Shown piece after piece: positions 1-64,000 of a stretch of 64,000 bases of DNA. The stretch is from a virus (lineage: Duplodnaviria; Heunggongvirae; Uroviricota; Caudoviricetes): positions 39,434-103,433 of the IMG/VR virus record IMGVR_UViG_3300033463_000048; one strand, written 5' to 3'. The notes below the pieces were generated by a model, which saw only the letters and a list, made by a program, of their open reading frames with translations, was not told where the DNA came from and did not search any database. Every line of letters starts with the position of its first letter. Position 1 is the first letter of the stretch. A program made the translations under genes and the position numbers.

Positions 1-1270
1 TCATTTGAATAATATCCAAACAATAAAGAAGTAAGAATCCACCACCAGAACCACGCGCTGGACCGACAATTGTACCTGCGTTCCAACATTCATCTATATT
101 CTTTTGAAGATTTAAGAAGTATGCAGACCATCTTGCATTATTTACTTCAGAAGATTCCCAAGTACGCTGAAGATTGTCCTCTAATTCTCTATATGCTTCT
201 TCATTCTGCAAATCATCGTGCTTTTTAATTCCTTCAATTACCGCATTAACAAGATATTTATCAGAATAATGTGGAGATTCAATAAACTTTTTGAGAGTTG
301 GCATATATTCTACATATTTGTCATACTCATTCTCATACGTATTGATCGCGCGCCACATAAGTTCAGGGATACGCAAGGGTTTACATAAAGAGAAATCTTC
401 ACATTTATCTGCAATTTCTTTTATATTACTATATGCAATATCTAATTGCTCTTTCGTGAGATAAGGGAAGAAAGATTCTAATTCTTCTGTACCCATCATA
501 TAAGTGGTTGCATAGAAGTCATCAACCTCTCTATCACCATTCTGAGCATTCAAATAAGCCTTATGGATAAATCTATCTTCTTTAGACAAATAATGCGAGT
601 CAGTTGTGATAATATATGGAATGTTGTACTTTAAACTAAATTCCAATAACTGCTTATTCACAAGAATCTGCTCTTTGTTGTTACTTGGCTGCATTTCAAA
701 GTAGAAGTTTCCTTCTCCAAAAATCTGTGCCATTTGTCTAATCCAAATATCAATCTTATCCCATAAGGCGGGGTTAGACTGTGCCCTCAAAATCTGAGTG
801 GGAAGACATCCGCCAAGACATGCAGTACTACCTATTACATGTCCTGGGTTTGAACCAATTATATCTATTAAATCTTGATAATATGTTGGCACTCGTCTCA
901 TACTGCGTGATACATATGAACGCATCCACGCGCGAGTTGAGATTTCCATTATCTGTTTTGCGCCTACGAGATCGCGCGCGATAAGAATAAAATGATAATA
1001 TCTATCAACATCTTTATTATAATTATCTGCGTTTAATCCATTACGACAAAGATAAATCTCATTTCCTCTTAATGCTTTAATTTGAGGGAAGTCCTTTGCT
1101 ATTTGTTCAATTTTAATCCAAGAAGAAACTGTTTCGTGGTCAGTAAAAGCCAAGACAGAATGATCCAACTCAACTGCCTTCTTAAATGCGTCTTTTACTT
1201 TGATAATACAATCACGGAGACGAAGATTTGAATACTCTGTGTGACCGTGAAGACTACCTGGATATATCAT
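1..1270 (-). CDS. dnaE: DNA polymerase III alpha-like (DnaE-type) N-terminal PHP domain; gene continues beyond window start
   Basis: Minus-strand ATG at 1268-1270 preceded by an RBS. Translation begins MIYPGSLHGHTEYS...LAFTDHE (PHP metal-binding motifs) and later contains GPARGSGGGFLLLY, which resembles the DnaE motif GPGRGSAAGS. The reading frame runs off position 1. Confidence 0.7.
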   Translation of the reverse strand, partial: MIYPGSLHGHTEYSNLRLRDCIIKVKDAFKKAVELDHSVLAFTDHETVSSWIKIEQIAKDFPQIKALRGNEIYLCRNGLNADNYNKDVDRYYHFILIARDLVGAKQIMEISTRAWMRSYVSRSMRRVPTYYQDLIDIIGSNPGHVIGSTACLGGCLPTQILRAQSNPALWDKIDIWIRQMAQIFGEGNFYFEMQPSNNKEQILVNKQLLEFSLKYNIPYIITTDSHYLSKEDRFIHKAYLNAQNGDREVDDFYATTYMMGTEELESFFPYLTKEQLDIAYSNIKEIADKCEDFSLCKPLRIPELMWRAINTYENEYDKYVEYMPTLKKFIESPHYSDKYLVNAVIEGIKKHDDLQNEEAYRELEDNLQRTWESSEVNNARWSAYFLNLQKNIDECWNAGTIVGPARGSGGGFLLLYCLDIIQM

Positions 1271-1297
1271 AAAATTTCTCCTTTTTACCTATTTTCT

Positions 1298-1336
1298 ATA
1301 ATAATTATACTATAATTTTGTAATTTTTTCAAGTTT
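1298..1336 (-). promoter_or_regulatory. conserved promoter-family member (minus orientation) upstream of dnaE-like gene
   Basis: Plus coordinates attata 1304-09 and tttcaa 1327-32; minus strand reads TTGAAA-17-TATAAT. Confidence 0.6.
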
Positions 1337-3095
1337 AAAAATCAAGAATACTGTCTGTAATTTCAAAGTTATCAACCATAATCTGCGCGCTTATCTTTCC
1401 GCACCATTCATTTAAGTTGGCGCGACCAATAAGTGTTATGGTCATTTTATCATATTTTTTAAACTCATCAATTCTTTTACATTTAAAGAACATATATGAC
1501 ACACCATTAACTGTAATTTTAACTGTATCATTTGTCTTACCCATAATTTGAATTGCAGATTTAGGAATATCTCTTAAAGTAACTTTAATAATTGGTTGGG
1601 GATTACCTTGTCCCCAAATATAATCGGTACTTCCAATTTCTTTAATAAGTTTTTCTATATCTTGATCAGTACCTTCTCTTTCAAAGTTAATATCATAGCA
1701 ACTTTCGGTAAAATTTAAATGTGAAAGTTCTTTATTAGCAAAATCGTGTAGGGCGCGAAGCTTTGAGTTTGGAATTGAAACTCCAAAAGCTTGATCGTGT
1801 CCTTCAGCATATTCCATTAATCCACTATTTAAAAGAAAACGTCTAAAGTCCTTTAACTCACTCTGACTTACTCCTCGCGCGCTACCGCGGATATAACCTT
1901 CATCATTAAGTCGTGCAACAATAGTTGGGCGCTTATGCTTGTCTGCAAGGCGCATTGCGATAAGTCCATTCAACTCTGAAGGAAATATATCTTCATCCTC
2001 AAGTCTAATAAAAAGAATTTGATTAGAAAGCAAATCATTTTTTGCAATCTTCATTTCCATTCTTTCACAAACATCGTCTCTAATCTTATTTTGATGGTCT
2101 CTATTATTACCACATTCACGTGCGGCTTCATTGGCAATTGTATCCATTTCACCTTTATGTCCTCGCTTTTCGCTAGGAATTAATTGATTACCATCCAAGA
2201 AAGCTTTAACCATCTTTTCTTTAGATGCTTGTGAACCAACTCTAATTGTAGCATTTACAAGAGGAACCAAATAAAATGCAACTGAAATTGGGTTTAGTTT
2301 ATCACAAATATCTTCAAAACTTGCACCAACCTTGCCACTAATTGAATAACCTTGTTTTTCAATTAAGGTTCTAAAAAATACGTTTTTGATATTTTCAGCC
2401 TTAAGACCAATTCTGATAATATATGCGTTCTCTGGTTCAACTACACTACCCATATCACCAATTATACCGAAGGCCGCGAGATCAATATAGTCAAATGCAT
2501 ATGATACATTCAAAAGTCTGTCTATATATCGACAAAATTGAAATACTACTCCAGCACCGGTAAGTTGCTTATTAGGATAATTCGGAGAGGTTTGATTATT
2601 AATAATAATTGCATTATCACTAAGCTGACTTCCATCAGAAAGTTCATGATGGTCAAGGACCAGGCAAGGAGCTACTTCCTTAAGTCGTTCGTGATAGATA
2701 TAATCATTAGTAGAACTATCGGGAAGAATAATTAAATCATATTCATCGTCACTATCTAAGATCTGCTGACAAATATCCTCAAGTCCGTGTTGTTTCCCGG
2801 AATGAATATATACGGTAATTATTTTTTCAGGATTTATTTTCTTAGTATATCCATAAGCAATTGCGGCTGAAGTAAATCCATCATTATCACTATCTACCAC
2901 CAAGGCAAAAGGTTTATTGCTGTTCACCTTACTTACATATAACTCCGCGCCTTCTTTAATATTTTTTAACTTACAGGGGTCTGATAGTTGATCGGGATAT
3001 GGATAAAGTACAGACCCTACATCCAACCCACGGGCGTGGAGTAAATTATTTAAGTAATCTGATTGAAAATTTTCATTTACTAACTTACACTTCAT
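1335..3095 (-). CDS. recJ: RecJ-like DHH-family ssDNA exonuclease
   Basis: DHH phosphoesterase motifs VVDSDNDGFTSAA and LVLDHH; GGH-like region; 586 aa. Confidence 0.65.
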   Translation of the reverse strand: MKCKLVNENFQSDYLNNLLHARGLDVGSVLYPYPDQLSDPCKLKNIKEGAELYVSKVNSNKPFALVVDSDNDGFTSAAIAYGYTKKINPEKIITVYIHSGKQHGLEDICQQILDSDDEYDLIILPDSSTNDYIYHERLKEVAPCLVLDHHELSDGSQLSDNAIIINNQTSPNYPNKQLTGAGVVFQFCRYIDRLLNVSYAFDYIDLAAFGIIGDMGSVVEPENAYIIRIGLKAENIKNVFFRTLIEKQGYSISGKVGASFEDICDKLNPISVAFYLVPLVNATIRVGSQASKEKMVKAFLDGNQLIPSEKRGHKGEMDTIANEAARECGNNRDHQNKIRDDVCERMEMKIAKNDLLSNQILFIRLEDEDIFPSELNGLIAMRLADKHKRPTIVARLNDEGYIRGSARGVSQSELKDFRRFLLNSGLMEYAEGHDQAFGVSIPNSKLRALHDFANKELSHLNFTESCYDINFEREGTDQDIEKLIKEIGSTDYIWGQGNPQPIIKVTLRDIPKSAIQIMGKTNDTVKITVNGVSYMFFKCKRIDEFKKYDKMTITLIGRANLNEWCGKISAQIMVDNFEITDSILDF

Positions 3096-4144
3096 TTAAT
3101 TTTTACCCTTTTCTCTAAAAGTTTTTCAAAAATTTCTTCTCCCTTGTCACAAGGAGAATCTTTAAGTTCGGTCAAACTATTCATATCATATATAAAACTC
3201 ATTTGACCATAGTTTTTATATTTATTACAAAACTCTTTTAACTTATTAAAATATTTTTCGCTTCTTCCAATTTCTTCATTATCATAACAGATAATAATTT
3301 CTCTTGGATGACAAGTTTTTACTAATAGTTTCATTTGAAACTTATTTAAGCTACTACCACATGTTGCAACTGCGCAGTTGGGACGAGAAAAACTATCTAA
3401 TTTAAGAACGCTTTTTTCACCCTCAAATAGAAGAGCATATCCTTCTCGTTTTATATTTTCTTTATTGATATTAAGTCCATATAAATTTAAACCAAGAGGA
3501 TGCGCATACCATTTGCCTTCTATACAAACTGGCATATATTTACCAAATTCTTTTGCTTCTTCTTCATTAAGTGCGCGACCACGGATTCCAACCAATTTAC
3601 CATTCACATCATAATGTGGAATAATAATCTTATTTCTACTAATAGAATAAGATATGTTAAACCTATCCATCGCTTCCTTTGTAATTCCCTCATTTAACCA
3701 TTCGGGCGCATAGAATTTAGTAAAACATTCTAATATACAAGGATCATAAGTTGTAAGTTCAGGAACATCTTCAAACTTATATTTATCACGCACACTATTA
3801 TATTTTTCAACTGCAAAGTCATTACCTAAACTATATTTACTACAATCTAAAATTACTTGATAGATATCTTGAAACCAATCATAATCAATATCGCGCGTTT
3901 CATAAAATCGCTTTAAGAAAGTAAAGATAGAAAAACTATCGGAACAATCTGTATAACAATGAAATATATGATTGTTTTTATAATAATATAATTTCCACGA
4001 TGCAGTTTCTATATTTGCATTATGACATACAGTAGGCATAATGAGGGCTTCATCTGTTTCTTTGAAAGGTATGCCCATTCTTTCTAATAATTTCTTTATA
4101 CTTTCAACGTCTAAGTTATCTGTAATTTCTTGATAATTAATCAT
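3092..4144 (-). CDS. dnaG: DNA primase (DnaG-like zinc-binding plus TOPRIM)
   Basis: Cys/His cluster CHNANIE...HCYTDC near the N-terminus; acidic TOPRIM-like motifs LLFEGEKS and CYDNEE; overlaps helicase gene in operon. Confidence 0.6.
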   Translation of the reverse strand: MINYQEITDNLDVESIKKLLERMGIPFKETDEALIMPTVCHNANIETASWKLYYYKNNHIFHCYTDCSDSFSIFTFLKRFYETRDIDYDWFQDIYQVILDCSKYSLGNDFAVEKYNSVRDKYKFEDVPELTTYDPCILECFTKFYAPEWLNEGITKEAMDRFNISYSISRNKIIIPHYDVNGKLVGIRGRALNEEEAKEFGKYMPVCIEGKWYAHPLGLNLYGLNINKENIKREGYALLFEGEKSVLKLDSFSRPNCAVATCGSSLNKFQMKLLVKTCHPREIIICYDNEEIGRSEKYFNKLKEFCNKYKNYGQMSFIYDMNSLTELKDSPCDKGEEIFEKLLEKRVKIK

Positions 4145-11246: not shown

Positions 11247-13109
11247 TTACTCCCTTATAGTTGAAAAATCAATTTTATTCATTATAAATTCTTTACGTGG
11301 TTCTACATTTTCACCCATCAAATCATAAAGAAGATTAATTGCTTCTTCATTCCATTCCATAGTTTCCAATCTTTGATATTGTGGACTAAACATAGAAGTT
11401 CTAACCTGTTCTGGCTCTAAAGAACCAAGACCCTTATTACGTTGAATATGTCCTTTTATAGTTGGACGTGCAGCATCCATTTCTTCATCTGTAAAATAAT
11501 AGCTTTCTTTCCCATTATGTTCTACAATATATAATGGAGAACGAAGCCAACATAAACGCCCTTCTTTAATAAATTCAGGCGCAAGGAATTGAAGAGCGGC
11601 CATAATTAAAAGACCAATATGATAACCATCTGCATCGGCATCAGTACATATTGCCAATTTTCCATAGCGCAATTTCTTGGAGTCATATTTTCCGGGAATA
11701 ATGTTCATTGCACTGAGAATAAGTTTAATTTCTTCATTTTCAAAAATTCTTTCTTCAGAATTTGAAAGGCAATTAATTATTTTACCTCTTAAAGCAAGAA
11801 GTCCAAATTTTTTATAATCGCGCCCTTGAGCAACACCGCCCAAAGCAGAATCACCTTCTTGAAGAAGAAGGATAGAATTTTCTCCTAAGAACTCAGCGTC
11901 TTTTAATTTATCAGATGCAAAAACTTTCTTCTTTTGATTTTTTTCTACTTCTTTTACCGCACCCAATACTTGTTGGCGCGCCTTTTCTGCTGCGGCTTCT
12001 GCTTTAGCAATTTTCTTCATTAATTCTACAATAGAATTAAATTCATCTGCGTGTCTAATTTTCATTTGCTTTAATGCATCAGAAAAAGCATTAGACGCGA
12101 GAGTGCGAAGATTTGCATTATTAATTTTCGATTTAGTTTGATTTGCAAAGGAAGGTTGCCCAACAGAACAGTTTATTACATAGAACATGCCCTTGCGGAT
12201 ACTATCCCCATCAAATTCAGATTTAGCAAGATTATTAAAAGTTCTTGTAATTGCGTTCTTTGCGCCCGTCACTGGTGTACCACCTTCGGGACAACGTAAA
12301 CCATTTACAAATACATATGATTGTTCGCGCCCATCAGACCATTGAAAGGCAATTTCAACTTTGTCTCCACTTTCATCTTGCGCGCTACCGGTTACAATAT
12401 GCTTATGTAATGGCTTTTGAATATTGTCTTTTACAAAATCTTGAATACCATTCTTAGAACAAAATGATTTCTTCTTTTTACCATCTTCTATTACTTCAAA
12501 AGTAATCCCGGTATAAAGATAAGAAATTGCTTTAATGTCTTCACAAATTTTGTCATAAGAATAAGTTATATCGCCATTCTTAAAAACTTTGGCGTCGGGC
12601 GCAAACGAGATATAAGTTCCATTCTTTTCTGAAGTTTTAAACTCTTTATAATCTTTAAGATTACCTTCTTCAAAATCTGCTTGCGCGCAAACTCCATCAC
12701 GATAGGATTTTACGGTAAACTTAGTAGAACTTAAACACACACACTTTGCGCCGATACCATTTAAGCCTGATACATTCTTATATACATGATCATCAAACTT
12801 ACCACCTGTATGGGATTTAGAATAGATAGAAACCAATACATTCTCTCCATCTTCTCTAATACCAAAAGGTACTCCACGTCCATAGTCACGTACAGTAATA
12901 GTATTGGTTTTTGTATCAAGGTCAATAGAAATTTTATCTCCATAACCGGCAATTGCTTCGTCAGTAGAGTTATTAATAATTTCCTTAAGTGCTTGATAGG
13001 CTCCATCACTATCATCCGATCCAAGATACATCTGGATACGGGTACGGACACCTGTACGGAAGTCTAATGATTTAATGTCATCAATTCCATAATTTTCCAT
13101 TAAACTCAT
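11247..13109 (-). CDS. gyrB: type II DNA topoisomerase subunit B (GyrB-like GHKL ATPase plus TOPRIM)
   Basis: GHKL motifs (IINNSTDEA, GLNGIGAK), TOPRIM EGDSALG, 620 aa immediately upstream of subunit A. Confidence 0.85.
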   Translation of the reverse strand: MSLMENYGIDDIKSLDFRTGVRTRIQMYLGSDDSDGAYQALKEIINNSTDEAIAGYGDKISIDLDTKTNTITVRDYGRGVPFGIREDGENVLVSIYSKSHTGGKFDDHVYKNVSGLNGIGAKCVCLSSTKFTVKSYRDGVCAQADFEEGNLKDYKEFKTSEKNGTYISFAPDAKVFKNGDITYSYDKICEDIKAISYLYTGITFEVIEDGKKKKSFCSKNGIQDFVKDNIQKPLHKHIVTGSAQDESGDKVEIAFQWSDGREQSYVFVNGLRCPEGGTPVTGAKNAITRTFNNLAKSEFDGDSIRKGMFYVINCSVGQPSFANQTKSKINNANLRTLASNAFSDALKQMKIRHADEFNSIVELMKKIAKAEAAAEKARQQVLGAVKEVEKNQKKKVFASDKLKDAEFLGENSILLLQEGDSALGGVAQGRDYKKFGLLALRGKIINCLSNSEERIFENEEIKLILSAMNIIPGKYDSKKLRYGKLAICTDADADGYHIGLLIMAALQFLAPEFIKEGRLCWLRSPLYIVEHNGKESYYFTDEEMDAARPTIKGHIQRNKGLGSLEPEQVRTSMFSPQYQRLETMEWNEEAINLLYDLMGENVEPRKEFIMNKIDFSTIRE

Positions 13110-13901: not shown

Positions 13902-14964
13902 ACATTTCTTTCTCCCGTTTAGTTTTCTTTGGCATATTTGTCCAAACTAACAAATCACGTGCTCTTGTGGCTGCTACATAACTTAAGCACTTTTCTTCAG
14001 TATTATACATACGCGCCCCAACCACAATTACGTTCTTTCGCTCTAAGCCTTTCGCGCTATGAATTGTGAGGATTTTAACTGTGTTGTCTTCCATTTTTTC
14101 TCGAAGTTGTTCTGTGGTTAATTCGTTTCTTTTAAGTATATCGTATGGAAGTCCAACATCTTTAAATTTTCGTGCCACTTCATCAATTTGCGCATTAGTA
14201 CGAGTAAGAACAAACCAATCACGATATTCGTCTGTACTCTTTCTAATTCCTTTTACAATTTTACTTAAGTCATAAGTCATATCATAAACTTTACCGATAT
14301 TATCTCGCGCGGGATAAGATGTGTCCATATAATCTAATCCGGCAAGATTGATAATACGTTTTGCAAAATTTAATATCGCGCGACTATTACGGAAATTTTT
14401 GGTTAGGTCGTAGGTTTTTATTTTGGGGTCTTTTGCTAAGTCAAGGAGTATGTCAGGTCGGCTACCGCGGAACGTATAAATACTTTGACGCCAATCGCCC
14501 ACCATCATCCATTTCTTTGGCTTAATATAGTCAAGGATAACCTTAAACTGCATATCTGTAGAATCTTGCGCCTCATCAAGAAATAGATAATCCACTTCTC
14601 TAATACAATGAAGATTCTTACTAATTAAGTTAAACAAATCATCAAACTTTTCTTCTGATATAATAAAAGAAGTATCAATTCCATTTGAAGTTAAAAGAGA
14701 ATTAACATAAGAATGGATAGTTCCTACAAACATTCCATCTTTATAATCTTCCCCAAGGCGTGCACGTAGAACTTCTGCGGCGTTATTTGTGAAAGTAAAA
14801 ACTACAATTCGCACGGGATTGGTATCTGGCATTTGAAGTACTTTTCTAACCTTTTCAGTTAAAGTTTCTGTTTTTCCACTTGCGGCTGTAGCATTTACTA
14901 CAATAAAATCTTCTGTTGAATTGATAACTGCTTGCTGTTCTTCTGTAAAATCTTTATATTCCAT
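13891..14964 (-). CDS. compact UvrD/PcrA-like SF1 helicase
   Basis: Motif I VVNATAASGKT, motif VI-like LTIHSAKGLERKNVIVVGA; 357 aa. Confidence 0.6.
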   Translation of the reverse strand: MEYKDFTEEQQAVINSTEDFIVVNATAASGKTETLTEKVRKVLQMPDTNPVRIVVFTFTNNAAEVLRARLGEDYKDGMFVGTIHSYVNSLLTSNGIDTSFIISEEKFDDLFNLISKNLHCIREVDYLFLDEAQDSTDMQFKVILDYIKPKKWMMVGDWRQSIYTFRGSRPDILLDLAKDPKIKTYDLTKNFRNSRAILNFAKRIINLAGLDYMDTSYPARDNIGKVYDMTYDLSKIVKGIRKSTDEYRDWFVLTRTNAQIDEVARKFKDVGLPYDILKRNELTTEQLREKMEDNTVKILTIHSAKGLERKNVIVVGARMYNTEEKCLSYVAATRARDLLVWTNMPKKTKREKEMYGW

Positions 14965-16052
14965 TAATTTTCCTCTTCTACTTGATATTCTATAAGTTTT
15001 CTTTTTTGAGAATTAGAATACCTAAAATATCTATTATGAGTATGCTTCTTTTTTCCATCGCAAACTTTTTTGATGTCATTATAAGAAAAACCCAATTCTT
15101 TTTCTGCTTGTGTGGAAGATTTATATTTTTTAATAATACTACCATTTTCATCTATTTCTTCTATTTCACAACATTGAGAAGATAAAAGATATTTTTCATA
15201 TCGTTCTTCAAAACTATCTATTCCATTAAGTCTAAACCAAATATACCCTCCAGCGGTAATTTGATTACCTAATGCTGCGGCTTTTATACTACTAACATCT
15301 ATTTTTAATTGTTTTGATGCTTCACCAGCACTTTTCCAATTCTTAACAAAATTACCCTCTAAGTCATATTGACAGAGTATTTTTGTTATTGTTTTATTAT
15401 TTTTAACATCTTCTATTATTTTATTTATATTTTGTTCATCTTTCTTATAAATCCATATATAACCACATCCATAATGATGTGAAGGAATAAGTTTAGGCAA
15501 ATCTAAACCAGTTTCTTTTTTTGCTTGAGCGTAATTTTCATATATTCCAATTAAGTCTCCATTAAAGGTATATTGTAGCACTGTTCGCGGTTGACAATAT
15601 AATTCCAAAGACTTAACTCTTTTTAGAATACAGCTACGAGATGCGCCTAAAAGATTAGCAACCACAGGAACAGATTTTAATTCTTTATATGCTTCTATAA
15701 TTTCTTCATCAGAGAATTTTTGATGACCGCTACCACCACTTGAGATATTATATCCTATTTCCTTATTTGTTGAATTATATAAATCAATATAATATATTTC
15801 TTTATCATTTAATTCTTCATTTTTTACTCTTTCTAGTATTTCTCTTTTAAAATTTTTTTTACCATATTTTTTAATAGCATTACATAAAGCAGGACAATCA
15901 TTATTTGGATTATTATAAGCCCAAAAAATATGTTGCTGCCATCTTATGGGTTCTGGTACAATAGTTTGACCTATATATATTTTATTATTAATTAAATTTG
16001 TAATTTTATAAATTACTCCCATATTATCCTCCAGACTTAATATTATATCCAT
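14964..16052 (-). CDS. GIY-YIG homing endonuclease
   Basis: GVIYKITNLINNKIYIGQT ... YNISSGG GIY-YIG core; C-terminal DNA-binding repeats. Confidence 0.8.
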   Translation of the reverse strand: MDIILSLEDNMGVIYKITNLINNKIYIGQTIVPEPIRWQQHIFWAYNNPNNDCPALCNAIKKYGKKNFKREILERVKNEELNDKEIYYIDLYNSTNKEIGYNISSGGSGHQKFSDEEIIEAYKELKSVPVVANLLGASRSCILKRVKSLELYCQPRTVLQYTFNGDLIGIYENYAQAKKETGLDLPKLIPSHHYGCGYIWIYKKDEQNINKIIEDVKNNKTITKILCQYDLEGNFVKNWKSAGEASKQLKIDVSSIKAAALGNQITAGGYIWFRLNGIDSFEERYEKYLLSSQCCEIEEIDENGSIIKKYKSSTQAEKELGFSYNDIKKVCDGKKKHTHNRYFRYSNSQKRKLIEYQVEEEN

Positions 16053-19580: not shown

Positions 19581-22502
19581 ATGGCGATTAATAAAGTCAT
19601 TTATGATGGGAATACGTTAATTGATTTGACAAGTGATACTGTGGATGCAAGTACACTATTAGTTGGATATACTGCACACGATCGTAGTGGCGCGGTTATT
19701 AATGGTGCATTTGATTCAAGTATTTACGTTTTAAAAGCTGGAGATACGATGACCGGCGCGCTCACCTTATCGGGCGCGCCTACTTCTAATTTACACGCTG
19801 CAACTAAAAAATACGTAGATGATGCTGTTGGCGCAATTACAGATACGAAAGTTACGCAGACAGTTACAACTACTAGCGCGGCTTATCCTATTCTTTTTGG
19901 CGCAAGTTCTATTACACTTAACTCAGAAGCAACGACCAAAACCGAGGGCGCGCGGATCAGTGGTGCGATTAGTGTTAATCCTGCTACGGGTACTATTAAT
20001 GCAAGACGTATTCATACGGGAACTACTTCACAGTATGGGCGCGTTGTGTTGGGTAATGGTATTGCGAATGGTACTGCTGGATGCTCTCATGGAGAGATTT
20101 ATATTTATGGTAAAGGGGATAAGTATGCTAGAATTTATGATAAAGATGGCGTACTTACTGCAAATAGAGAACTTTATTTTCCTAATATAAGTGGGTATAT
20201 TACCATTATAGATTCCATAACGGGTACTGCCGGAAATGGGAAGACGATTACAAGTTTTACCAATAGTAATGGTGAGGTAGATATTACTTTTGGTAATATA
20301 TCTATCACTAAATCTCAAGTAAGTGATTTTCCAACTCTTGCGACTGTAGCAACTAGTGGATCTTACAATGATTTAAGTAATAAACCGACTATTCCTACAA
20401 TTACTGATACCTATTCTGGGACTTCCTCTAACGGAATGAGCGGTAAAGCAGTTAAAAGTGCCATTGATGCACTTGATGGATCTATTACAGGTTCGGCTGG
20501 ATCAGGTAAAACCCTTACTGCATTTTCACAGACCAATGGTGTAGTTAGCGCGACTTTTGGAAATATTAGTATAACTAAATCTCAAGTTTCTGATTTTCCT
20601 ACATTAGCTACCGTAGCAACTAGTGGAAGTTATAATGACTTAACTAATAAGCCCACTACTTTTGTACTAAAAGCGGGCGATACAATGACCGGTGAACTTA
20701 TTATGGATAATAAGGCGGTCAAAGTTAATATTGGTAATAGTGCTATTGCTACATTCCAAGCGATCGCACAATCGGGTGTAAAATGTACTAGTTCTTATAT
20801 ATCTGGCGCCTGTGCGCATGGTATGTGGTCAACTGGTTATGCTACTTCGTTAACAGATACAACCACTTATGTGGAAGATGGAGCATGGATAATTTATCGT
20901 ACAACTGGTGGAGATATTTGCATTCCTAAATGGGGTTCTATTGGAACAGCATCTAAACCTATATATTTTGATGCATATGGTAAGCCGCTTGAATGTAATA
21001 CAATTCCAACAATAACCGATACGTATTCGGGAACTTCTTCTGATGGTATGAGCGGTAAGGCTGTAAAAAGTGCTATTGATGCGCTTGACGGATCAGTTAC
21101 GGGAAGCGCGGGCGCTGGAAAGACTTTAACTGCTTTTTCTCAGACTAATGGAGTGGTAACGGCTACATTTGGAAATATATCTATTACTAAGTCCCAAGTG
21201 AGCGATTTTCCTACACTTGCAACAGTTGCAACGAGCGGAAGCTATACCGATTTAAGTAATAAACCTACTATTACTGATGAAAATGTATTACAAACACAGA
21301 CCCTTTCAAGTAATACAAGTACATATCCTATCTTATTTTCTGCAACTTCTCATACAGCAGGAAATGATCCATCTACGACTACAACAGGCGCAAGAATAAG
21401 TGGTGGAATTTTTTATCAACCATCAACTGCAACATTATATGTAAGAAAAATTCATTCTAGTACTACAACTGCATATAGTAGAGTTGTTCTTGGTAATGGA
21501 ATTGCTGATGGAACGGCTGGTGCCTGCGATGGTAGAATTGTTATTTATGGTAAAGGAACTAAGTATTTCCAACTTGCAGATAATAATAATGCATTGACTG
21601 CAGATCGTACACTTAATGCACCTGACGTAAGTGGTACTATTGCAACTCTTGAACATATATATAGTATATCTGGTCGTGTAGCAACAATTGCTGCCAATTC
21701 TAATTTAAATTCCTCAGCCTTTACTGTGCCGGGTAGGTATTATTGTAGTTCTACTAATGCTGCTACATTAACTAATAGCCCGGTTACAACTACTGGATTT
21801 GTTATGGATGTAGAGAATTTAGTTGGTAGTGCAATGGTAGAAATTGGAGGCACCGCAAGTAATTATCGTAGAAGAACAATTCGTGGAGCAACTTCTTCTG
21901 ACTGTGTATATATACAAATTTGTTATACTGACTCAAGTAAAGTAGAAACCTATAATAGCTGGATTAGAATGGCTTCTACAAGTACCGCACTTTTGAAGTC
22001 CGGTGGAACAATGACGGGCGCCTTAACACTTTCTGGCGCGCCAACATCAAATCTTCATGCGGCGACAAAGAAATATGTAGATGATGCAGTTTCAGGATTA
22101 AGTGGAACAGTTACATCTGTAGAAGTTACGGGTAGTAAGGGAATTAGTGTAAGTGGTAGTCCGATTACTACTAGTGGAACTATTGCAGTTAGTGTATCTA
22201 CTTCAAGTGGAACGGCTACAAGAAATACAACTAATACTTCTGCGGGTGTAGTTAAATATAATAAATATGGTAGAGTTGTAAATGTATATACTGATACAAA
22301 TATTACTTGTAGTGGTACATTAAATAGTGGTAAAGTAATATGTACTCTTCCAAAGCCTGCACAAATAACTACTGTTGGAGAATTTAGCTTTGGCTCTTAT
22401 TCTTCAGTTCCATTTGCAATTAATACCGATGGAGAGTTATATCCACTTTCAACGATATCTGGAACCGGTAGAGTTGGTTTCACATATATATCTGCTTCTT
22501 AA
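19581..22502 (+). CDS. tail fibre protein with internal repeats
   Basis: 973 aa; LKAGDTMTGALTLSGAPTSNLHAATKKYVDDAV motif at both ends; three copies of a ~90-130-aa repeat. Confidence 0.65.
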   Translation: MAINKVIYDGNTLIDLTSDTVDASTLLVGYTAHDRSGAVINGAFDSSIYVLKAGDTMTGALTLSGAPTSNLHAATKKYVDDAVGAITDTKVTQTVTTTSAAYPILFGASSITLNSEATTKTEGARISGAISVNPATGTINARRIHTGTTSQYGRVVLGNGIANGTAGCSHGEIYIYGKGDKYARIYDKDGVLTANRELYFPNISGYITIIDSITGTAGNGKTITSFTNSNGEVDITFGNISITKSQVSDFPTLATVATSGSYNDLSNKPTIPTITDTYSGTSSNGMSGKAVKSAIDALDGSITGSAGSGKTLTAFSQTNGVVSATFGNISITKSQVSDFPTLATVATSGSYNDLTNKPTTFVLKAGDTMTGELIMDNKAVKVNIGNSAIATFQAIAQSGVKCTSSYISGACAHGMWSTGYATSLTDTTTYVEDGAWIIYRTTGGDICIPKWGSIGTASKPIYFDAYGKPLECNTIPTITDTYSGTSSDGMSGKAVKSAIDALDGSVTGSAGAGKTLTAFSQTNGVVTATFGNISITKSQVSDFPTLATVATSGSYTDLSNKPTITDENVLQTQTLSSNTSTYPILFSATSHTAGNDPSTTTTGARISGGIFYQPSTATLYVRKIHSSTTTAYSRVVLGNGIADGTAGACDGRIVIYGKGTKYFQLADNNNALTADRTLNAPDVSGTIATLEHIYSISGRVATIAANSNLNSSAFTVPGRYYCSSTNAATLTNSPVTTTGFVMDVENLVGSAMVEIGGTASNYRRRTIRGATSSDCVYIQICYTDSSKVETYNSWIRMASTSTALLKSGGTMTGALTLSGAPTSNLHAATKKYVDDAVSGLSGTVTSVEVTGSKGISVSGSPITTSGTIAVSVSTSSGTATRNTTNTSAGVVKYNKYGRVVNVYTDTNITCSGTLNSGKVICTLPKPAQITTVGEFSFGSYSSVPFAINTDGELYPLSTISGTGRVGFTYISAS
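20200..21265 (+). repeat. intragenic tandem/dispersed repeats (three copies of FGNISITKSQVSDFPTLATVATSGSY(N/T)DL(S/T)NKPT module)
   Basis: Near-identical nucleotide blocks at ~20270-20400, ~20560-20660 and ~21170-21260. Confidence 0.7.
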
Positions 22503-22922: not shown

Positions 22923-23570
22923 ATGGAAGATAGAGATTTAATGCTTTATTCTTATCTTAAAGGAAAAGGAGGCGGAGGCGGCGGTGGCGGAGAAAAGCCG
23001 CTAAAAATTCTTGATTATCAAGAAGTTAGAAGTGGTAATGGTACTTCTTGGACTTCCAAATCTTTTTCATTAAAGGCTGGGGATACTCTTATTTTTGCTA
23101 TAATGCATAGAGATGAAATTACTACCGCACCTCAAGGTTTTACTTTGATTACAAGTAATCAATCTATGAGTTGGCAACGAATTTCGATATATGCCTATAC
23201 TGCAACAGACACGGAAACTAAGACGGCAAGTTTTACACTATCTAATGCAAGAAGATATGATTGTTATTTATGGAAAATGGAAAACGTGTCCGTATCTGAA
23301 AATGCTAGTTTAAAAAAGGGACAAAAGTATAGTGGTAGTTTTTCATTTACGAATGAATATCGACCAATGTTGATTTTATTTGGTTGTTATAATGGTAATA
23401 ATTGGAGCCTTTCTAGTGAATTAAAAGGACAACTTATATTTCCGGTTATGGAATTCACAACTTATGCAATAAATTTTAATACTGCTTATTCTTCTACACT
23501 TACCTTTACTGCTCCAAGTGATCAATGGAGTACGGCAGGTATATATTTAACAGAAGTAAGCGAACCTTAA
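22923..23570 (+). CDS. hypothetical structural protein with poly-Gly linker
   Basis: KGKGGGGGGGGEK linker then beta-rich domain; followed by strong terminator. Confidence 0.45.
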   Translation: MEDRDLMLYSYLKGKGGGGGGGGEKPLKILDYQEVRSGNGTSWTSKSFSLKAGDTLIFAIMHRDEITTAPQGFTLITSNQSMSWQRISIYAYTATDTETKTASFTLSNARRYDCYLWKMENVSVSENASLKKGQKYSGSFSFTNEYRPMLILFGCYNGNNWSLSSELKGQLIFPVMEFTTYAINFNTAYSSTLTFTAPSDQWSTAGIYLTEVSEP

Positions 23571-33599: not shown

Positions 33600-34420
33600 T
33601 CAATATATCTCCATTCGTATCCATTACAAGTTTTTCTTTTACCTTTACACACTTTTGAAATACTGCTAGGATCTGTTTTAGTTTCTTCACCGGCTTGTTT
33701 TATTGTGTTATATTCTTTTATCAGTTTTCCATTTTTGTATTGTCCTACTTTTCTTAATGGACATTGTTTTAATTTTCTTTTTTGAGGAAGTTCATCTCCT
33801 TCTCTTATCCAAAAGAAACCTTTATATCCATTTTTAGTATTACAAGCAGTTTTTATACTATCCTTATTAAAACCAGTAATATAACTTGCTTCCTTTAAAG
33901 AAGAATAAGAGTTTACTAATTCTAATTCTTCTGTATATTGTAATACTCTTGATTCACTTTGCTTTATCCCGCTGTGTAAAAATCCTCTATCAATAATTTC
34001 TTCTTTATCATAAAGTCCTAATTCTTTCAACACATCTACAACAGATGAATACCACACCCCAAGTTCTTCTGATATTTGACGGACTGATTGTCCTTCTAGA
34101 TATTTAGTAGCAACTTCTTCTCTTTGTATCCATTTTCGGCCATCTCCTCCAATGGTGGTATTGTATCCATTTTTAATTGTGTCTAATTCTTTAATCCAAT
34201 AGATTTCTCTTTCATTAAGAATTTCATCAGAAACATTCTCTTCTAAAGGAATTATAGAAAAATGTTCTAAACCATATTTATTCATCGCTCGATATAAATG
34301 AGTATCGCTCTTCTTTGAAGCATAAATATGTTTACTCCAACGCGAAGCTAAAGTTTCAACAGTTTTCCCAATATAAATTTTTGAATTAAGATCATTTATA
34401 ATTTTATAAATAGTTCCCAT
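33596..34420 (-). CDS. GIY-YIG homing endonuclease
   Basis: GTIYKIINDLNSKIYIGKT ... YNTTIGGDG; C-terminal HTH-like repeats. Confidence 0.8.
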   Translation of the reverse strand: MGTIYKIINDLNSKIYIGKTVETLASRWSKHIYASKKSDTHLYRAMNKYGLEHFSIIPLEENVSDEILNEREIYWIKELDTIKNGYNTTIGGDGRKWIQREEVATKYLEGQSVRQISEELGVWYSSVVDVLKELGLYDKEEIIDRGFLHSGIKQSESRVLQYTEELELVNSYSSLKEASYITGFNKDSIKTACNTKNGYKGFFWIREGDELPQKRKLKQCPLRKVGQYKNGKLIKEYNTIKQAGEETKTDPSSISKVCKGKRKTCNGYEWRYIE

Positions 34421-42013: not shown

Positions 42014-43630
42014 ATGATAAATTATTTCGGCTATCTTGAAGTGGAACTTAATGATGAGGACTTTGCAACACTACAAGGAGGAAGCACACCTGAGTCTTTG
42101 GGAGAGTTAAAAGAGAACCAATATATTATTGCTAAAGACCGGTTTGGGAGAGTTGAATATTTTCAGTTTAAGAATAGTAAAGTAGAAAGAATTTTATATA
42201 CTGAATTAGGGAATGATTTTACAGGTAAAATTAAACCATTAAACGACCAACAAGTTTGCGCCTTTCATATGTTAAGAGATAAGGACGTTCCGGTGAAACT
42301 TATAACTGGTAAGTTTGGTACCGGTAAGGCGCAACCAATAGATACAGTAATCCCTACCCCAATGGGTATGAAGAGACTTGGGGATATAAAAGTTGGAGAT
42401 TATGTGTTCGCGCGTGATGGACGTAAAACGAAAGTTTTAGGTATATTTCCTCAAGGAGTTCTTACTAATTATAGAGTAGAACTTAGCGACGGGCGCGTTG
42501 TATTTTGTAATGATGAACATATTTGGACTTGCGTGGATAAAGATGGAAATTTTTTTGATACTACAATTAAAGAAATTATAAGTTCTTATATGTTATATGA
42601 GGGAGAATATTATAGAATCCCTTGGAACGAAGCAGTTAAATATGAAGCAGTTATAGACGAAAGGGATTTTTATAAGGAAGGACATTACATCTCTTGTGAA
42701 ATTCCTAAAGAATTTATGACCGCGCCGATTGATCAAAGAATGCGTCTTTTAGCTGGAATTATTGATTCTAAAGGACTTATCAAGGCACGCCGCTTATATT
42801 TAAGACTTAAGGACTTTAATCTTATTAGGGATATGTATTCTTTCTTAATGGGATTAGGAATTTACGCATATAATGATGATACTGTAATTGAAGATAACTT
42901 AACTGCGGAAATTCATTTATGTTTAAACGAAAAGCAAATAAGTGAAATTTCTCCTTATCTTTATATGTTTGAATTAGAGAGACAAATCGATCCCGAGGAG
43001 AAACCTGCACTAGAAATCACCGATATATATACTGTTGGTGAAGCAGAAATGGTATGTATTTTGGTTGATAATCCAGAGCATTTATATTTGACTAATGATT
43101 ATATTGTAACTCATAATACAATGGCAAATATTGTTGCCGCGCTGGAAGCGGTTCAAAAGGGTGAGTTTGAGAAGATTATATTTATTAGAAATAATGTACA
43201 AGTGGCTGGGACAGATCCCATTGGCGCACTTCCAGGAGACGAACATGATAAACTTCTTCCGTATTTAATGCCTTTTGCAGACCATTGCGGTGGTATAGAA
43301 GGTATTCAAAGATTAATAGAAGAAGAAAAACTTGAAGTAATTCCTCTTGCTTTTTTAAGAGGTCGTAGTATTAGAAATGCTATTCTTTATTCAATGGAAT
43401 CAGAAAATTTAACTAAAGAACATATTCAATTAATTTTAGGAAGAGTAGATAAGGGTTCTCAGTTATGGATGGATGGAGATATTAAGCAAAGAGATAAGGC
43501 TATATTTGAAAAGTCTCAAGGACTTGAAATTATGATTGAAAGACTGGCGGGGAATCCTTTATTTGGCTATGTAAATTTAGTTAAGTCAGAACGTTCACCA
43601 ATAGCCGCACTTAGCGATCTACTTGATTAA
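42014..43630 (+). CDS. phoH: PhoH-like ATPase interrupted by an intein
   Basis: The 105-aa N-extein ends GKFGTGK; the C-extein TMANIVAALEAVQKGEFEKIIFIRNN...LPGDEHDKLLPYLMPFADH is a PhoH core. Removing residues 106-368 restores the Walker A motif GTGKT. Confidence 0.8.
   Translation: MINYFGYLEVELNDEDFATLQGGSTPESLGELKENQYIIAKDRFGRVEYFQFKNSKVERILYTELGNDFTGKIKPLNDQQVCAFHMLRDKDVPVKLITGKFGTGKAQPIDTVIPTPMGMKRLGDIKVGDYVFARDGRKTKVLGIFPQGVLTNYRVELSDGRVVFCNDEHIWTCVDKDGNFFDTTIKEIISSYMLYEGEYYRIPWNEAVKYEAVIDERDFYKEGHYISCEIPKEFMTAPIDQRMRLLAGIIDSKGLIKARRLYLRLKDFNLIRDMYSFLMGLGIYAYNDDTVIEDNLTAEIHLCLNEKQISEISPYLYMFELERQIDPEEKPALEITDIYTVGEAEMVCILVDNPEHLYLTNDYIVTHNTMANIVAALEAVQKGEFEKIIFIRNNVQVAGTDPIGALPGDEHDKLLPYLMPFADHCGGIEGIQRLIEEEKLEVIPLAFLRGRSIRNAILYSMESENLTKEHIQLILGRVDKGSQLWMDGDIKQRDKAIFEKSQGLEIMIERLAGNPLFGYVNLVKSERSPIAALSDLLD
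42329..43117 (+). mobile_element. intein (263 aa) with LAGLIDADG homing-endonuclease domain; Ala1, C-terminal HN, +1 Thr
   Basis: Block A AQPIDTVI, block B NDEHIWT, LAGLIDADG-like MRLLAGIIDSKG, C-terminal YIVTHN followed by T. Confidence 0.75.
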
Positions 43631-44435
43631 GGTATTAAAAATGACAAATATTTATAAGATAACAAATATTGTTAATGGTAATATTTATATTGGAAAAACA
43701 ATTAACAATATTAATGACCGTTGGAAAGAACATATTTACTCTGCGATATCAAAAGATAAAGATGGTAATTGTCCTCTTCATTGTGCTATTAGAAAATATG
43801 GAAAAGAAAATTTTTTAATAGAATTAATTGATAGGTGCGAGGATTTTGATAGTTCAAATAAGGAAAAGTATTGGATAAAATACTATGATTCTTATAATAA
43901 TGGATATAATGCTACTTTGGGTGGGGATGGAAATCCATTATATGATAGAGAATATATCAAAAAATTATGGGACGATGGGCTGTCTAATAAAGAAATTAGA
44001 GAAATTATTGGTTGTGATAAGAAAGTAATAAGAAAGACTCTTTATTCTTATGGCATAACAAAAGAAGAGCTTTATAAAAGAAGAGGGAAGAATATAGAGA
44101 AAGATATAGATAAAGATTATTTAAAAGAGTTATGGGATGAAGAGCTAACTCTAACCCAAATTGCCGAAATTTTTAATGTTGAACAAAAAACTATTATGCG
44201 AAGATTAGAAAAAATTGGTATTGACTCTAATCAACGACATAATAGATATTATGATTCACTTTTAAAGGTTCATTGGTCTGTTATTTTAAATTTGTATAAA
44301 GAAGGAAAAACTATTTCAGAAATTCGAAAAATAACGGGCTGTGGATTTAATTCTATAGAAAAAACAATAATCAGGCATCGAGACTATTTAAAAGATAAAA
44401 ATGAAGTCAGGACTATGGCTGATTTGCTTGATTAA
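43623..44435 (+). CDS. GIY-YIG homing endonuclease
   Basis: NIYKITNIVNGNIYIGKT ... YNATLGGDG; repeated HTH-like modules. Confidence 0.8.
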   Translation: MIKVLKMTNIYKITNIVNGNIYIGKTINNINDRWKEHIYSAISKDKDGNCPLHCAIRKYGKENFLIELIDRCEDFDSSNKEKYWIKYYDSYNNGYNATLGGDGNPLYDREYIKKLWDDGLSNKEIREIIGCDKKVIRKTLYSYGITKEELYKRRGKNIEKDIDKDYLKELWDEELTLTQIAEIFNVEQKTIMRRLEKIGIDSNQRHNRYYDSLLKVHWSVILNLYKEGKTISEIRKITGCGFNSIEKTIIRHRDYLKDKNEVRTMADLLD

Positions 44436-54853: not shown

Positions 54854-55146
54854 AGAAATTTAGTAAATTTGATAAGTTTATATTTGGTTTAACCGCAGCA
54901 ATTGTAATTTTCTTAATTGTTGTACTTGTTCTAATTTTCGCGCCTTCAAAGCGTGAGCCATTTAATAAAGAATTGTATGACCAGTTTATTGCAGTAGAGA
55001 AGTACGGTAATAGTCAGAGGGGATTGCTTATTGTGTATGATAAGGATACAAAGGTAATGTATTATTTTATTGATGATGCATATCAGATGGCACTTACCCC
55101 TATTTATAATAGTGATGGAACCATTAGACTTTACGAAGGCGAGTAA
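54850..55146 (+). CDS. small membrane protein
   Basis: TM LTAAIVIFLIVVLVLIF. Confidence 0.4.
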   Translation: MKKFSKFDKFIFGLTAAIVIFLIVVLVLIFAPSKREPFNKELYDQFIAVEKYGNSQRGLLIVYDKDTKVMYYFIDDAYQMALTPIYNSDGTIRLYEGE

Positions 55147-55147
55147 A

Positions 55148-55678
55148 ATGGGAAAATATTGGAGACACTTCAAAACAGTATGTAAACATAAATTCTTTGT
55201 ATTCAAAGAGTGCAGAAAATGTGGAATAACTTGGCAAGGATTTGTACACGACTTGTCTAAATTTTCTGTTACTGAATTTATGCCATCTGCAAAATATTTT
55301 CAAGGTGACAGAAGCCCAATTCAAGCAGAGAAAGAAGCGATAGGCTACAGCAAGGCTTGGCTACATCATAAATCACATAATAAACATCATTGGCAGTATT
55401 GGACAGATTTTGGCACGAGTGGAAACATCATCAAAGTAAAGATTCCGATTAAGTATGTAATCGAAATGGTATGTGACTGGATTGGAGCGGGAAAAGCATA
55501 TTCAACAAAGAAGTGGGGTCAAACTGAGCCACTTGATTATTATATAAATCACATCAAAAAAGAATCCCACATTCATCCTGAAACAGAAAGAACAGTGATG
55601 TATCTGTTACAGGTTCTTGCAGACAAAGGACCGGATAAATTTCACAATGAAGCAAAGAAATTGCTGAAAGAAGGGTAA
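55148..55678 (+). CDS. His-rich hypothetical protein (WLHHKSHNKHHWQYW)
   Basis: Start MGKYWRH after TAA; 176 aa. Confidence 0.4.
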   Translation: MGKYWRHFKTVCKHKFFVFKECRKCGITWQGFVHDLSKFSVTEFMPSAKYFQGDRSPIQAEKEAIGYSKAWLHHKSHNKHHWQYWTDFGTSGNIIKVKIPIKYVIEMVCDWIGAGKAYSTKKWGQTEPLDYYINHIKKESHIHPETERTVMYLLQVLADKGPDKFHNEAKKLLKEG

Positions 55679-59161: not shown

Positions 59162-59303
59162 ACTCATTAGTTTACGGAAAACCGCGAACTAATGGGTTCG
59201 CGAGATAAGTTCAACTCTTATATGAGTTATTGGTTTGACTTTATTTGACTCCTTTCTTTAGTTGTACCTCTTTCTTACAGCGCGGACGAGAGTTCGCGCA
59301 CCT

Positions 59304-59725: not shown

Positions 59726-59729
59726 ATCA

Positions 59730-60110
59730 AAGGTGCACACAGCAAACTTTTTAAACAAGCATATGATTAGGGATCATATCCTCCACAATAGGATAAGCGA
59801 AGTTGGCGCCTTGTATTTTTAACTTAAAAGCACTTACTGCAATTTTAAAACCGCCGAAAGGCTCCACAGATTAAAGATGAAAATGCAACTTTAGTGGCAT
59901 CCTGCCATAAACTTAAAAAAGTGCTTTGGAATTTTTAAAACTTAAAAGCTCACCCAGCAAACTTAAATTGGGATAATAAAACAACATTGTGAACGCTGTT
60001 TTTAAGTGGTTCAAGTCCACTATAAAGAGCTTTGTAAATTGAAAAGAAACTTAAACGCCCTTTCTGCAATCTTAAAAAATAGCTTAAAGGTAAAGCAATT
60101 CACTTGTAAT
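59730..60110 (+). repeat. array of degenerate 30-45-nt repeats (AACTTAAAAGC..C(A/T)GCAAAC/CTGCAAT.. units) with embedded tRNA-arm-like hairpins
   Basis: Units gcacacagcaaac, gcacttactgcaat, gctcacccagcaaac, gccctttctgcaat each preceded by aactt-aaaag. T-arm-like GTGGTTCAAGTCCAC at ~60005. No ORF of 60 aa or longer on either strand. Confidence 0.5.
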
Positions 60111-63858: not shown

Positions 63859-63861
63859 TCT

Positions 63862-63933
63862 ATCCCCGTAGGCTAATGGAAAGACCGATTGGCTACGAAC
63901 CAATTAGTATCAGTTCGACTCTGGTTGGGGATG
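63862..63933 (+). tRNA. tRNA-Arg (ACG)
   Basis: Acceptor ATCCCCG/TGGGGAT, anticodon arm ATTGG-CTACGAA-CCAAT, T-arm ATCAG-TTCGACT-CTGGT. Confidence 0.7.
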
Positions 63934-63939
63934 TATAAT

Positions 63940-64000
63940 GCCGAGGGAACTGGCGTTCGGTCGGGCCTCATAAGCTCGATAGGGTGGGATCGAAACCCAT
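63940..64000 (+). tRNA. partial tRNA-like (possible CAT anticodon) truncated by window end
   Basis: Acceptor-like GCCGAGG, anticodon-like CGGGC-CTCATAA-GCTCG, T-arm start GTGGG-ATCGAAA-CCCAT at the window edge. Confidence 0.3.

Follow-up and report, generated by a model that had tools for sequence, protein, structure and literature searches.

A lineage-wide excess of GCGC and CGCG in the AT-rich DNA of SPbeta-like phages

Gene content of the window and size of the excess

The stretch of 64,000 nucleotides (nt) analysed here, called the window below, covers positions 39,434–103,433 of the IMG/VR record IMGVR_UViG_3300033463_000048 and combines a G+C content of 34.7% with a large excess of the palindromes GCGC and CGCG. 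Its gene content points to a large uncultured SPbeta-like phage as its source. In particular, the replication module follows the gene order YorF-YorG-YorH-YorI-YorJ-YorK-YorL of SPbeta and displays the Pfam families YorF, AAA_24, SPbeta_YorH, DnaB_C, Toprim, DHH/RecJ_OB and PHP polymerase. Its products include a RecJ-like YorK, a Toprim primase, a DnaB-like helicase, a Sak4-type AAA_24 protein and a YorF protein that shares 28-30% identity with those of the SPbeta group. No close match to the window was found among GenBank phages. The window also carries genes for both type II topoisomerase subunits, a UvrD-like helicase, tail fibres, an endolysin with SH3 repeats, an ATP-dependent ligase, an RNase H and a ClpP-like protease, an intein-containing PhoH-like gene, at least four GIY-YIG homing-endonuclease genes and, at 59-64 kb, 16 tRNA genes.

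An earlier note on this DNA, made by eye, had described GCGC, CGCG and GCGCGC as strikingly abundant for an AT-rich genome, and the counts bear it out: 311 GCGC, 217 CGCG, 43 GCGCGC, 36 CGCGCG and 6 GGCGCGCC. GCGC thus reaches 5.37 times its frequency expected from base composition and 4.0 times that expected from a first-order Markov model, the corresponding values being 3.75 and 3.5 for CGCG, while the trinucleotides GCG/CGC stand at 1.93x. In dinucleotide-preserving shuffles, only 2.6 +/- 1.8 GCGCGC and 0.16 GGCGCGCC are expected. The note had counted about 90 instances between 300 and 28200; in the first 28 kb, alternating G/C runs that reach 4 nt or more number about 125. Site density there equals that throughout the 64 kb, which hold 302 such runs (about 4.7 per kb).

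The excess does not result from codon usage. When synonymous codons are permuted within each gene, which preserves both the protein sequence and the codon usage, 109.7 +/- 8.3 GCGC are expected and 276 are seen (2.5x, z=20). In the same way, 187 CGCG are seen for 89.7 expected (2.1x, z=12) and 38 GCGCGC for 7.3, whereas a shuffle of codon order gives 3.3x for GCGC and 2.45x for CGCG. The excess therefore outlasts the codon-preserving shuffle, with ratios far from the value of 1 at which the earlier note was ready to abandon its claim. Under an order-2 Markov model, a residual excess of 1.36x (GCGC) and 1.19x (CGCG) is left. An order-3 model gives back the 4-mer counts by construction; it leaves GCGCGC at 0.85 and CGCGCG at 1.03, and a maximal-order model puts GCGCGC at 0.73x. 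This indicates that the signal lies at the level of 3-4-mers and that longer alternating runs are not additionally favoured.

Distribution of the G+C clusters in the window

Within genes, GCGC occurs in all three frames (102/110/64). The intergenic DNA of the window is enriched as well, with 17 GCGC and 11 CGCG where 2.7 of each are expected. A G+C-rich stretch of 1.4 kb without any long open reading frame (ORF), at 58700-60100, holds many of these intergenic copies and may harbour RNA genes missing from the annotation. Within it, at 59161-59229, ARAGORN predicts a tRNA-like gene whose anticodon has four bases (aatg). Two long G+C runs are supplied by an intergenic G+C-rich inverted repeat at 8330-8357 (GGGCGGGGC ttatttcat CCCCGCCCGG), which is probably an intrinsic terminator.

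In coding sequences, the bias appears in the choice of silent bases. At four-fold degenerate sites of the window, the base that completes GCGC is used in 61%, 58%, 50% and 52% of cases at positions 1-4 of the motif, for a baseline of about 11%, and the base that completes CGCG in 37-47%. The use of C jumps from 21-23% in GCGT/GCGA contexts to 53-58% in GCGC. Gly is encoded by GGC in 54% of cases ahead of an Ala codon and in 11% elsewhere; Ala is encoded by GCG in 50% of cases ahead of a codon starting with C and in 17% elsewhere. Long runs inside genes consist of Ala/Arg/Gly/Pro codon pairs with G/C-ending codons (e.g., GGC GCG CC or GCG CGC). The earlier note had traced the motifs to such unexpected codon pairs, and G/C-ending codons are indeed chosen at Gly-Ala pairs and at pairs of Ala with a C-initial codon. 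Its suggestion of selection at the nucleotide level is likewise supported by the resistance of the excess to shuffling, by its equal size in intergenic and coding DNA of the family and by the completion of GCGC at four-fold sites.

It should be emphasized that most sites are not isolated tetramers, a point on which the earlier note needs correction. Only 44 of the 311 GCGC and 13 of the 217 CGCG have A/T on both flanks; the others belong to longer runs made of G and C only. There are 420 such runs of at least 5 nt in the window for about 211 expected, and the ratio to expectation increases with length, from 0.9x for 1-4 nt to 1.4x for 5 nt, 2.2x for 6 nt, 4.2x for 7 nt and 6x for 8 nt or more. 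Runs of at least 6 nt also exceed the synonymous shuffle (2.3x, z=14.7). The G+C-only tetramers display a gradient, from GCGC (5.4) and CGCG (3.75) through GGCG (2.4), GCGG (2.1) and GCCG/CGGC (1.4) to CCGG (1.3), GGGC (1.1) and GGGG (0.7), with GGCC avoided (0.4). CGCG is enriched almost only after G or before C, i.e., where it overlaps GCGC, and is otherwise depleted; A/T-flanked CG is depleted too (0.5-0.6x). Neither flank logos nor tables of NGCGCN and NCGCGN reveal an extended consensus, only a preference for G/C and the avoidance of particular 6-mers. Instead of a single defined sequence, as would be expected of a highly iterated palindrome (HIP), there are runs of 5-12 nt of many sequences. 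Two origins for this arrangement were rejected. A general extension of dinucleotide repeats does not fit, since ACAC/GTGT is at 0.53x and ATAT and TATA at about 1x. Avoidance of other palindromes did not drive CG into G/C flanks either, since non-palindromic A/T-flanked CG is equally depleted.

The sites appear scattered at random. No preferred distance or periodicity was found between sites in the window, where spacing fits an exponential distribution (KS p=0.52) with an index of dispersion of 1.38, although gaps longer than 800 nt are more numerous (13) than under a Poisson process (6.9). This speaks against the packaging or positioned binding signal suggested in the earlier note. There is no strand bias either: GCGCG and CGCGC occur 113 times each, and block-wise counts follow gene orientation alone.

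Core genes of the window show the excess at 2-9x, while the homing-endonuclease genes, a GT8 glycosyltransferase gene and a few small genes hold only 0-2 sites (see table). Several palindromes are avoided. Relative to what the core counts predict, AGCGCT is at 0.12x, ACGCGT at 0.13x and AGCGCC/GGCGCT at 0.26x, and the lone TCGCGA shows a restriction-type avoidance on top of an enriched core. Other palindromes are also rare in the window, as they usually are in phages: CATG (0.30x), CTAG (0.32x), GGCC (0.40x), AGCT (0.40x), TCGA (0.49x) and GATC (0.53x). Against the synonymous shuffle, GATC, CATG and GGCC stay at 0.49-0.62x, whereas GCGC and CGCG are over-represented, so that restriction avoidance does not describe these two. 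The two tail-fibre runs listed in the table, CCGGCGCGC and CGGGCGCGCC, are typical Gly-Ala pairs spelled with G/C-ending codons.

Table. Coordinates of G+C runs and of genes rich or poor in sites (sites, GCGC/CGCG copies)
Feature	Position	Strand	Remarks
DNA polymerase III alpha gene, N-terminal part (PHP domain, YorL-like)	1..1271	-	truncated by the window edge; 15 sites vs 2.5 expected
CGCGCGCG, longest alternating run	5785..5792		codons TTC GCG CGC GAT
Other four CGCGCGCG copies	starts 973, 23953, 40365, 47556		
GGCGCGCC, example	11975..11982		topoisomerase II B-subunit gene; AAG GCG CGC CAA (Lys-Ala-Arg-Gln)
Other five GGCGCGCC copies	starts 19773, 22035, 35787, 47800, 58932		
GIY-YIG homing endonuclease	14964..16052	-	G+C 26%; only 2 sites
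Two G+C-only runs, 18 nt apart	19753..19780	+	tail-fibre gene; CCGGCGCGC (Thr-Gly-Ala-Leu), CGGGCGCGCC (Ser-Gly-Ala-Pro)
Gene without assigned function	22923..23570	+	0 sites at G+C 34%
GIY-YIG homing endonuclease	33596..34420	-	1 site
GIY-YIG homing-endonuclease-like gene (putative)	43623..44435	+	0 sites; G+C 27%; assigned by eye from N-terminal motif
DUF5662 gene	55070..55678	+	0 sites although G+C 36%
Single TCGCGA of the window	59198..59203		7.3 expected from shuffles, ~23 from the CGCG count

Relatives, comparators and turnover at silent sites

Relatives were found by protein and contig searches with the truncated polymerase III alpha gene as the query that pulled them out; they form a large family with contigs of 110-180 kb, mostly from rumen samples. 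The statistics rest on 78 related loci of at least 10 kb, and the whole related set amounts to 1.47 Mb. The median excess over the 78 loci is 4.1x for GCGC and 3.2x for CGCG, the two ratios being strongly correlated across loci (Spearman 0.90). The highest members (L028, L029 and L055) reach 9-10x, and in L028/L029 the G+C runs of at least 8 nt reach 20x. As in the window, coding and intergenic DNA are alike, with 4.27x and 3.29x in genes and 4.26x and 2.99x in 102 kb of intergenic DNA, for GCGC and CGCG respectively. At 140,000 four-fold sites of the relatives, GCGC is completed in 39-53% of cases per position, the baseline being 11-14% across window and relatives. The excess is therefore a property of the whole lineage.

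Various comparators are free of it. SPbeta, type phage of the related group (L007, NC_001884 85000-134416), has GCGC at 0.48x and CGCG at 0.02x; the latter means a single copy in 49 kb for about 45 expected, so that CGCG is avoided to an extreme degree. The rumen Firmicute plasmids pCY360 from Butyrivibrio and pRUMAL01 from Ruminococcus albus have GCGC at 1.75x and 1.04x and CGCG at 0.66x and 0.51x. The signature is also absent from an unrelated rumen phage with a related endolysin (GCGC 0.89x, CGCG 0.41x) and from distant gut phages with a related topoisomerase. Two such phages from human faeces, L008 and L009 (MT835476 and MT835484), show a bias of their own: CpG at 1.8x, CTAG near 0 and GGCC at 0.1-0.2x.

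Within the family, GCGC has been purged in some members. L038 (IMGVR_UViG_3300031992_000100) has no GCGC in 18.8 kb, where composition would give about 18 copies and the usual excess of the family about 70. Its CGCG is at 0.30x, whereas GGCG, GCGG and GCCG remain at about 2x. This looks like a complete, restriction-driven purge of a word that is favoured elsewhere. Other members (L056, L058 and L059) also lack the signature (0.5-0.7x). Since L038 persists without any GCGC, the sites are neither essential nor chemically protected. Together with the avoidance of TCGCGA, AGCGCT and GGCC in the window, this suggests that G+C-only sites are exposed to restriction and speaks against the hypermodification neutralising GCGC-specific restriction that the earlier note had proposed.

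The motifs turn over. Between the window and L001, whose third-position identity is 65%, 58% of GCGC sites are kept for 12-45% of other G+C-rich tetramers, while 22 sites have been lost and 28 are new. Recent changes were polarised to single lineages at four-fold sites in clusters of relatives 4-8% apart. G/C bases are substituted at 0.198 per site in the motif, 0.182 in other G+C-only tetramers and 0.145 elsewhere, so that the motif bases are not protected and a shielding of clustered G/C from deamination is rejected. Losses exceed gains at four-fold sites (57 vs 34) as well as for whole tetramers (144 vs 99), and losses are mainly C>T and G>A. As 70 of the 99 gains are single transitions, an origin by multi-nucleotide insertions is rejected too. 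Motif-creating transitions occur at 0.066 vs 0.039 in controls (1.68x, p=0.006), or 2.6 times the controls when all sites are considered. In the window's own clade, where events are few, losses are rarer (4/41 vs 25/114) and gains are 2.7 times the control. Double silent changes were counted in four alignments (L062/L072/L090, L030/L031/L032, L001/L002/window and L078/L079/L082). TGCA became CGCG 8 times among 316 ancestral TGCA, i.e., 4-8 times more often than in comparable double changes, and ACGT became GCGC 3 times, several-fold above comparable double changes at neighbouring third positions.

The ratio of motifs to their transition neighbours predicted from these rates is 0.33, whereas the alignments that yielded the rates show 0.59 and the window 1.5-2. 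The observed rates thus predict far fewer motifs than exist, which indicates that neither a low mutability nor a mutation bias is sufficient alone. As recent losses are in excess and long-term retention is nevertheless better than for other tetramers, a fixation bias, i.e., selection or biased conversion, is expected.

Selfish elements are dense across the family. Inteins occur in the PhoH-like gene of the window (42014-43630, + strand) and in the UvrD-like helicase of L002 (7282-9222), and the polymerase gene of L011 (9986-15030) is interrupted by GIY-YIG genes. The GT8 glycosyltransferase gene of the window (13170-13901, - strand) adjoins the topoisomerase II genes, and the same spot is occupied by a Mom-like gene (PF25680) in L003 (7249-8154) and L004 (1683-2840). 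GATC is not avoided in the loci that carry the Mom-like gene (1.1-1.4x), for 0.02-0.8x in other family members, a difference that hints at adenine modification in part of the family.

Possible origins of the excess

Searches for a gene that could read or modify the motif were negative. With SPbeta MtbP as a query, phmmer detected no C5-methyltransferase either in the window or among 3,926 ORFs from the related loci, whose genomes are partly sampled, nor did Pfam among the window proteins scanned. Past the polymerase gene, some 30 kb of the closest long relative encode NrdD, NrdG, a dCMP deaminase, a dUTPase, a RuvC-like protein and tail proteins; in this stretch, as in the window and the related loci, neither a C5-methyltransferase nor another base-modifying enzyme was found. 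Neither a phmmer search with E. coli Dam nor a DPPY-motif regular expression returned anything relevant besides a few weak Dam-like matches in some relatives. No Vsr or vsr gene was seen in these incomplete genomes, no search having been aimed at it. Comparing gene presence with signature strength near the polymerase gene (44 loci, 321 gene families) yielded nothing convincing.

Attempts to find the host were no more successful. A scan of genome collections with YorF retrieved only two short, mis-binned phage contigs in metagenome-assembled genomes (MAGs) with conflicting labels (Bacillota and Bacteroidaceae). Following the endolysin homologues ended at another phage that does not have the signature, and following those of DUF5662 at an Oscillospiraceae prophage of 59% G+C. 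A scan with a TROVE-like gene retrieved only distant, unrelated phages.

A preference of translation for codon pairs such as Gly-Ala or Ala-Arg would explain why sites coincide with specific codon pairs. However, intergenic DNA is equally enriched, all three frames are concerned and every position of the motif behaves alike; a translation effect is thus excluded. A polar or positioned signal, either Chi-like as in the earlier note, for packaging or for nicking, is barely credible. The Chi sequences of Firmicutes do have a GCG core, but the core of the present motif is palindromic, its extensions are oriented only by the G>C skew of coding strands, and no enrichment is seen for Chi words known from Firmicutes (GCGCGTG, 4 copies over the two strands; GAAGCGG, 4; AGCGG/CCGCT, 29/19). 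A GCGC core is also shared with the nick consensus of phage T5, R/GCGCRGG; the nicks of T5 are confined to one strand, the other being referred to as nick-less (PMC3517423). The window has 10 GCGCRGG, 6 on one strand and 4 on the other, in proportion to the GCGC excess, so that a T5-type consensus is rejected. The exponential spacing and the lack of GCGC in L038 further oppose any signal of this kind. Recognition of the exact site GCGC, and of CGCG by overlap, has more in its favour. The reader would be a binding protein, an orphan methyltransferase or another modifying enzyme, and copies would be favoured for the usefulness of the marked or bound site, as in a tetranucleotide analogue of HIP1. 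Each position of the palindrome is completed to about the same degree, C use leaps where GCGC is formed, CGCG is enriched almost only in overlap with GCGC, and the signature is family-wide with sporadic losses, as for HIP1 of cyanobacteria. Multispecific C5-methyltransferases are known in SPbeta-group phages, mtbP being annotated in SPbeta itself. However, no such gene was detected in the parts of the genomes that were searched, none of the gene families around the polymerase gene varies along with the signature, the non-cognate GGCG, GCGG and GCCG are also raised 2-2.4 times, G+C runs of any sequence are in excess and L038 persists without the site. This explanation therefore seems rather unlikely.

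A context-dependent mutation bias, by which the replisome, nucleotide pools or repair would favour A/T>G/C changes beside G/C until a neutral equilibrium, is given a similarly low probability. The phage encodes a polymerase III alpha-type replisome enzyme, a dCMP deaminase, a dUTPase and an anaerobic ribonucleotide reductase, and one replication module is common to the family. The random placement, the equal excess in coding and non-coding DNA, the raised rate of motif-creating transitions and the recurrence of TGCA>CGCG would all be accounted for. However, the measured rates predict only about 1.2 times the baseline odds where the same data show 3.9 times; G/C in clusters mutate slightly faster than elsewhere; the signature persists over deep divergence despite the excess of recent losses; transversion neighbours show a depletion no smaller than that of transition neighbours; and the signature is missing from the homing-endonuclease genes, although these share the replication machinery. 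It is very unlikely that the phages have simply drifted to an oligonucleotide bias of their hosts. Phage k-mer usage generally follows that of the host, the family comes mostly from a single habitat, the rumen, and some of its contigs are binned into bacterial MAGs. Nevertheless, the labels of these MAGs conflict, two rumen Firmicute replicons and the unrelated rumen phage with the related endolysin lack the signature, and the phages use their own polymerase. Moreover, such sites are classically scarce in Gram-positive genomes of low GC, as known from rare-cutter mapping.

On balance, we lean towards viewing the excess as a DNA-level compositional signature of the whole phage lineage that is kept by a selection-like fixation bias, rather than as a set of positioned functional sites. 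Short pure-G+C clusters (4-12 nt) centred on GCGC are strewn at random through the AT-rich genome, at about 5 per kb, in every frame and on either strand. Inside genes, G/C-ending codons are picked wherever codons for Ala, Arg, Gly, Pro, Ser (AGC) or Cys adjoin. These clusters have no intrinsic protection and decay fast through C>T and G>A changes, while their abundance has been held across a family whose silent sites have turned over many times. Such maintenance despite recent decay requires a fixation bias favouring the completion or retention of clusters, either weak selection or a selection-like biased repair, of which we infer selection to be the source. Single clusters are dispensable, and where the host evidently restricts GCGC every copy has been purged.

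What is favoured could be a property of alternating G/C stacks that is physical or only loosely read, such as the local stability or stiffness that they lend to the duplex amid AT-rich DNA. The graded enrichment over G+C-only tetramers suggests such a property rather than an exact enzyme site, and tetramers rank along this gradient by how many GC/CG steps they contain, the same order as that of nearest-neighbour stacking stability in the SantaLucia parameters. This physical benefit is the weakest step of the proposal and should be taken as tentative. It is somewhat less probable that the clusters are read by an unrecognised system of the phage family or its hosts, e.g., a DNA modification, a protective or condensing binding protein, or a component of defence or anti-defence.

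Several points weigh against maintenance by a fixation bias. The polarised counts are modest (tens of events), parsimony-based and derived from metagenome consensus sequences. The loss rate is not reduced in most clusters of relatives, and these lineages could simply be decaying now. The benefit of the G+C clusters is hypothetical. Stabilising clamps would predict an even spacing, and long gaps instead exceed the Poisson expectation; duplex stability also leaves the depletion of A/T-flanked CG unexplained. The homing-endonuclease genes without signature share their genome with the core genes and, if selection acts genome-wide, would have to be recent arrivals. Furthermore, the search for modification genes covered only parts of the genomes, and a signature shared with the host may be compatible with the data.

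Comparison with known systems and significance

No earlier report of such a GCGC/CGCG signature was found in the literature. HIP1 of cyanobacteria (GCGATCGC) is an over-represented palindrome scattered in coding and non-coding DNA, with sporadic exceptions and an unexplained cause (PMC4390886). Judging by these traits, it is the closest analogue: like HIP1, the phage GCGC is a G+C-rich palindrome far above composition, found in any frame and in non-coding DNA, and lineage-wide with exceptions. However, HIP1 is a defined 8-mer of cellular genomes, whereas the phage core has 4 nt, no extended consensus and graded related words. Moreover, orphan methyltransferases exist for the HIP1 core and none was found in the window or in the 1.47 Mb of related loci, which are partly sampled.

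In E. coli, the excess of CCWGG is reportedly driven by Dcm/Vsr very-short-patch repair, which also raises a palindrome through a bias on single-base differences and not through a positioned function. Dcm/Vsr nevertheless predicts an effect at the methylated cytosine only and a depletion of T-containing neighbours, whereas the four positions of the phage motif behave alike. A repair of this type is rejected, since these positions are completed in 50-61% of cases, GTGC/GCAC is at 1.05x and GCGT/ACGC at 0.89x, and transversion neighbours are depleted at least equally.

The signature runs opposite to two usual trends, namely the avoidance of restriction sites by phages (PMC6286503) and the suppression, reported as general in prokaryotes, of runs in which G and C alternate over 6 nt or more (PMC4060949). 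As in restriction-site avoidance, palindromes are shaped at silent sites and differ between close relatives, down to the absence of GCGC from L038. The sign is nonetheless opposite for GCGC and CGCG, with a 4-10x excess, and only in L038 is GCGC itself avoided. The signature likewise resembles genome signatures and Z-DNA words in being a lineage-specific, coding-independent oligonucleotide bias, but alternating G-C runs of at least 6 nt are found here at about 19 times composition. Tracts of Z-DNA length are rejected as the target: they are at 0.73-1.03x relative to their own sub-words, with 5 copies of CGCGCGCG and none of GCGCGCGC.

Short palindromes of phages are normally discussed only as avoided, and a large and abundant family of rumen and gut phages here shows a 4-10x excess of one, held at silent and non-coding positions despite rapid decay, whereas individual members have lost the word entirely. 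The family thus offers a natural setting where the same four bases are subject both to a positive force and to restriction avoidance, and where the strength of non-coding selection in viruses could be measured. The signature separates this phage family from other AT-rich phages and will distort host prediction and binning that rely on k-mers. It also predicts an unusual restriction pattern, with frequent HhaI, BstUI, BssHII and AscI sites in DNA of 35% G+C. A reader of the motif, if there is one, would represent a new kind of phage function at the DNA level. Clusters read by such an unrecognised system would be the first counterpart of highly iterated palindromes that is carried by viruses and has the scale of a tetranucleotide, with a copy number that is positively selected and in open conflict with GCGC-specific restriction.

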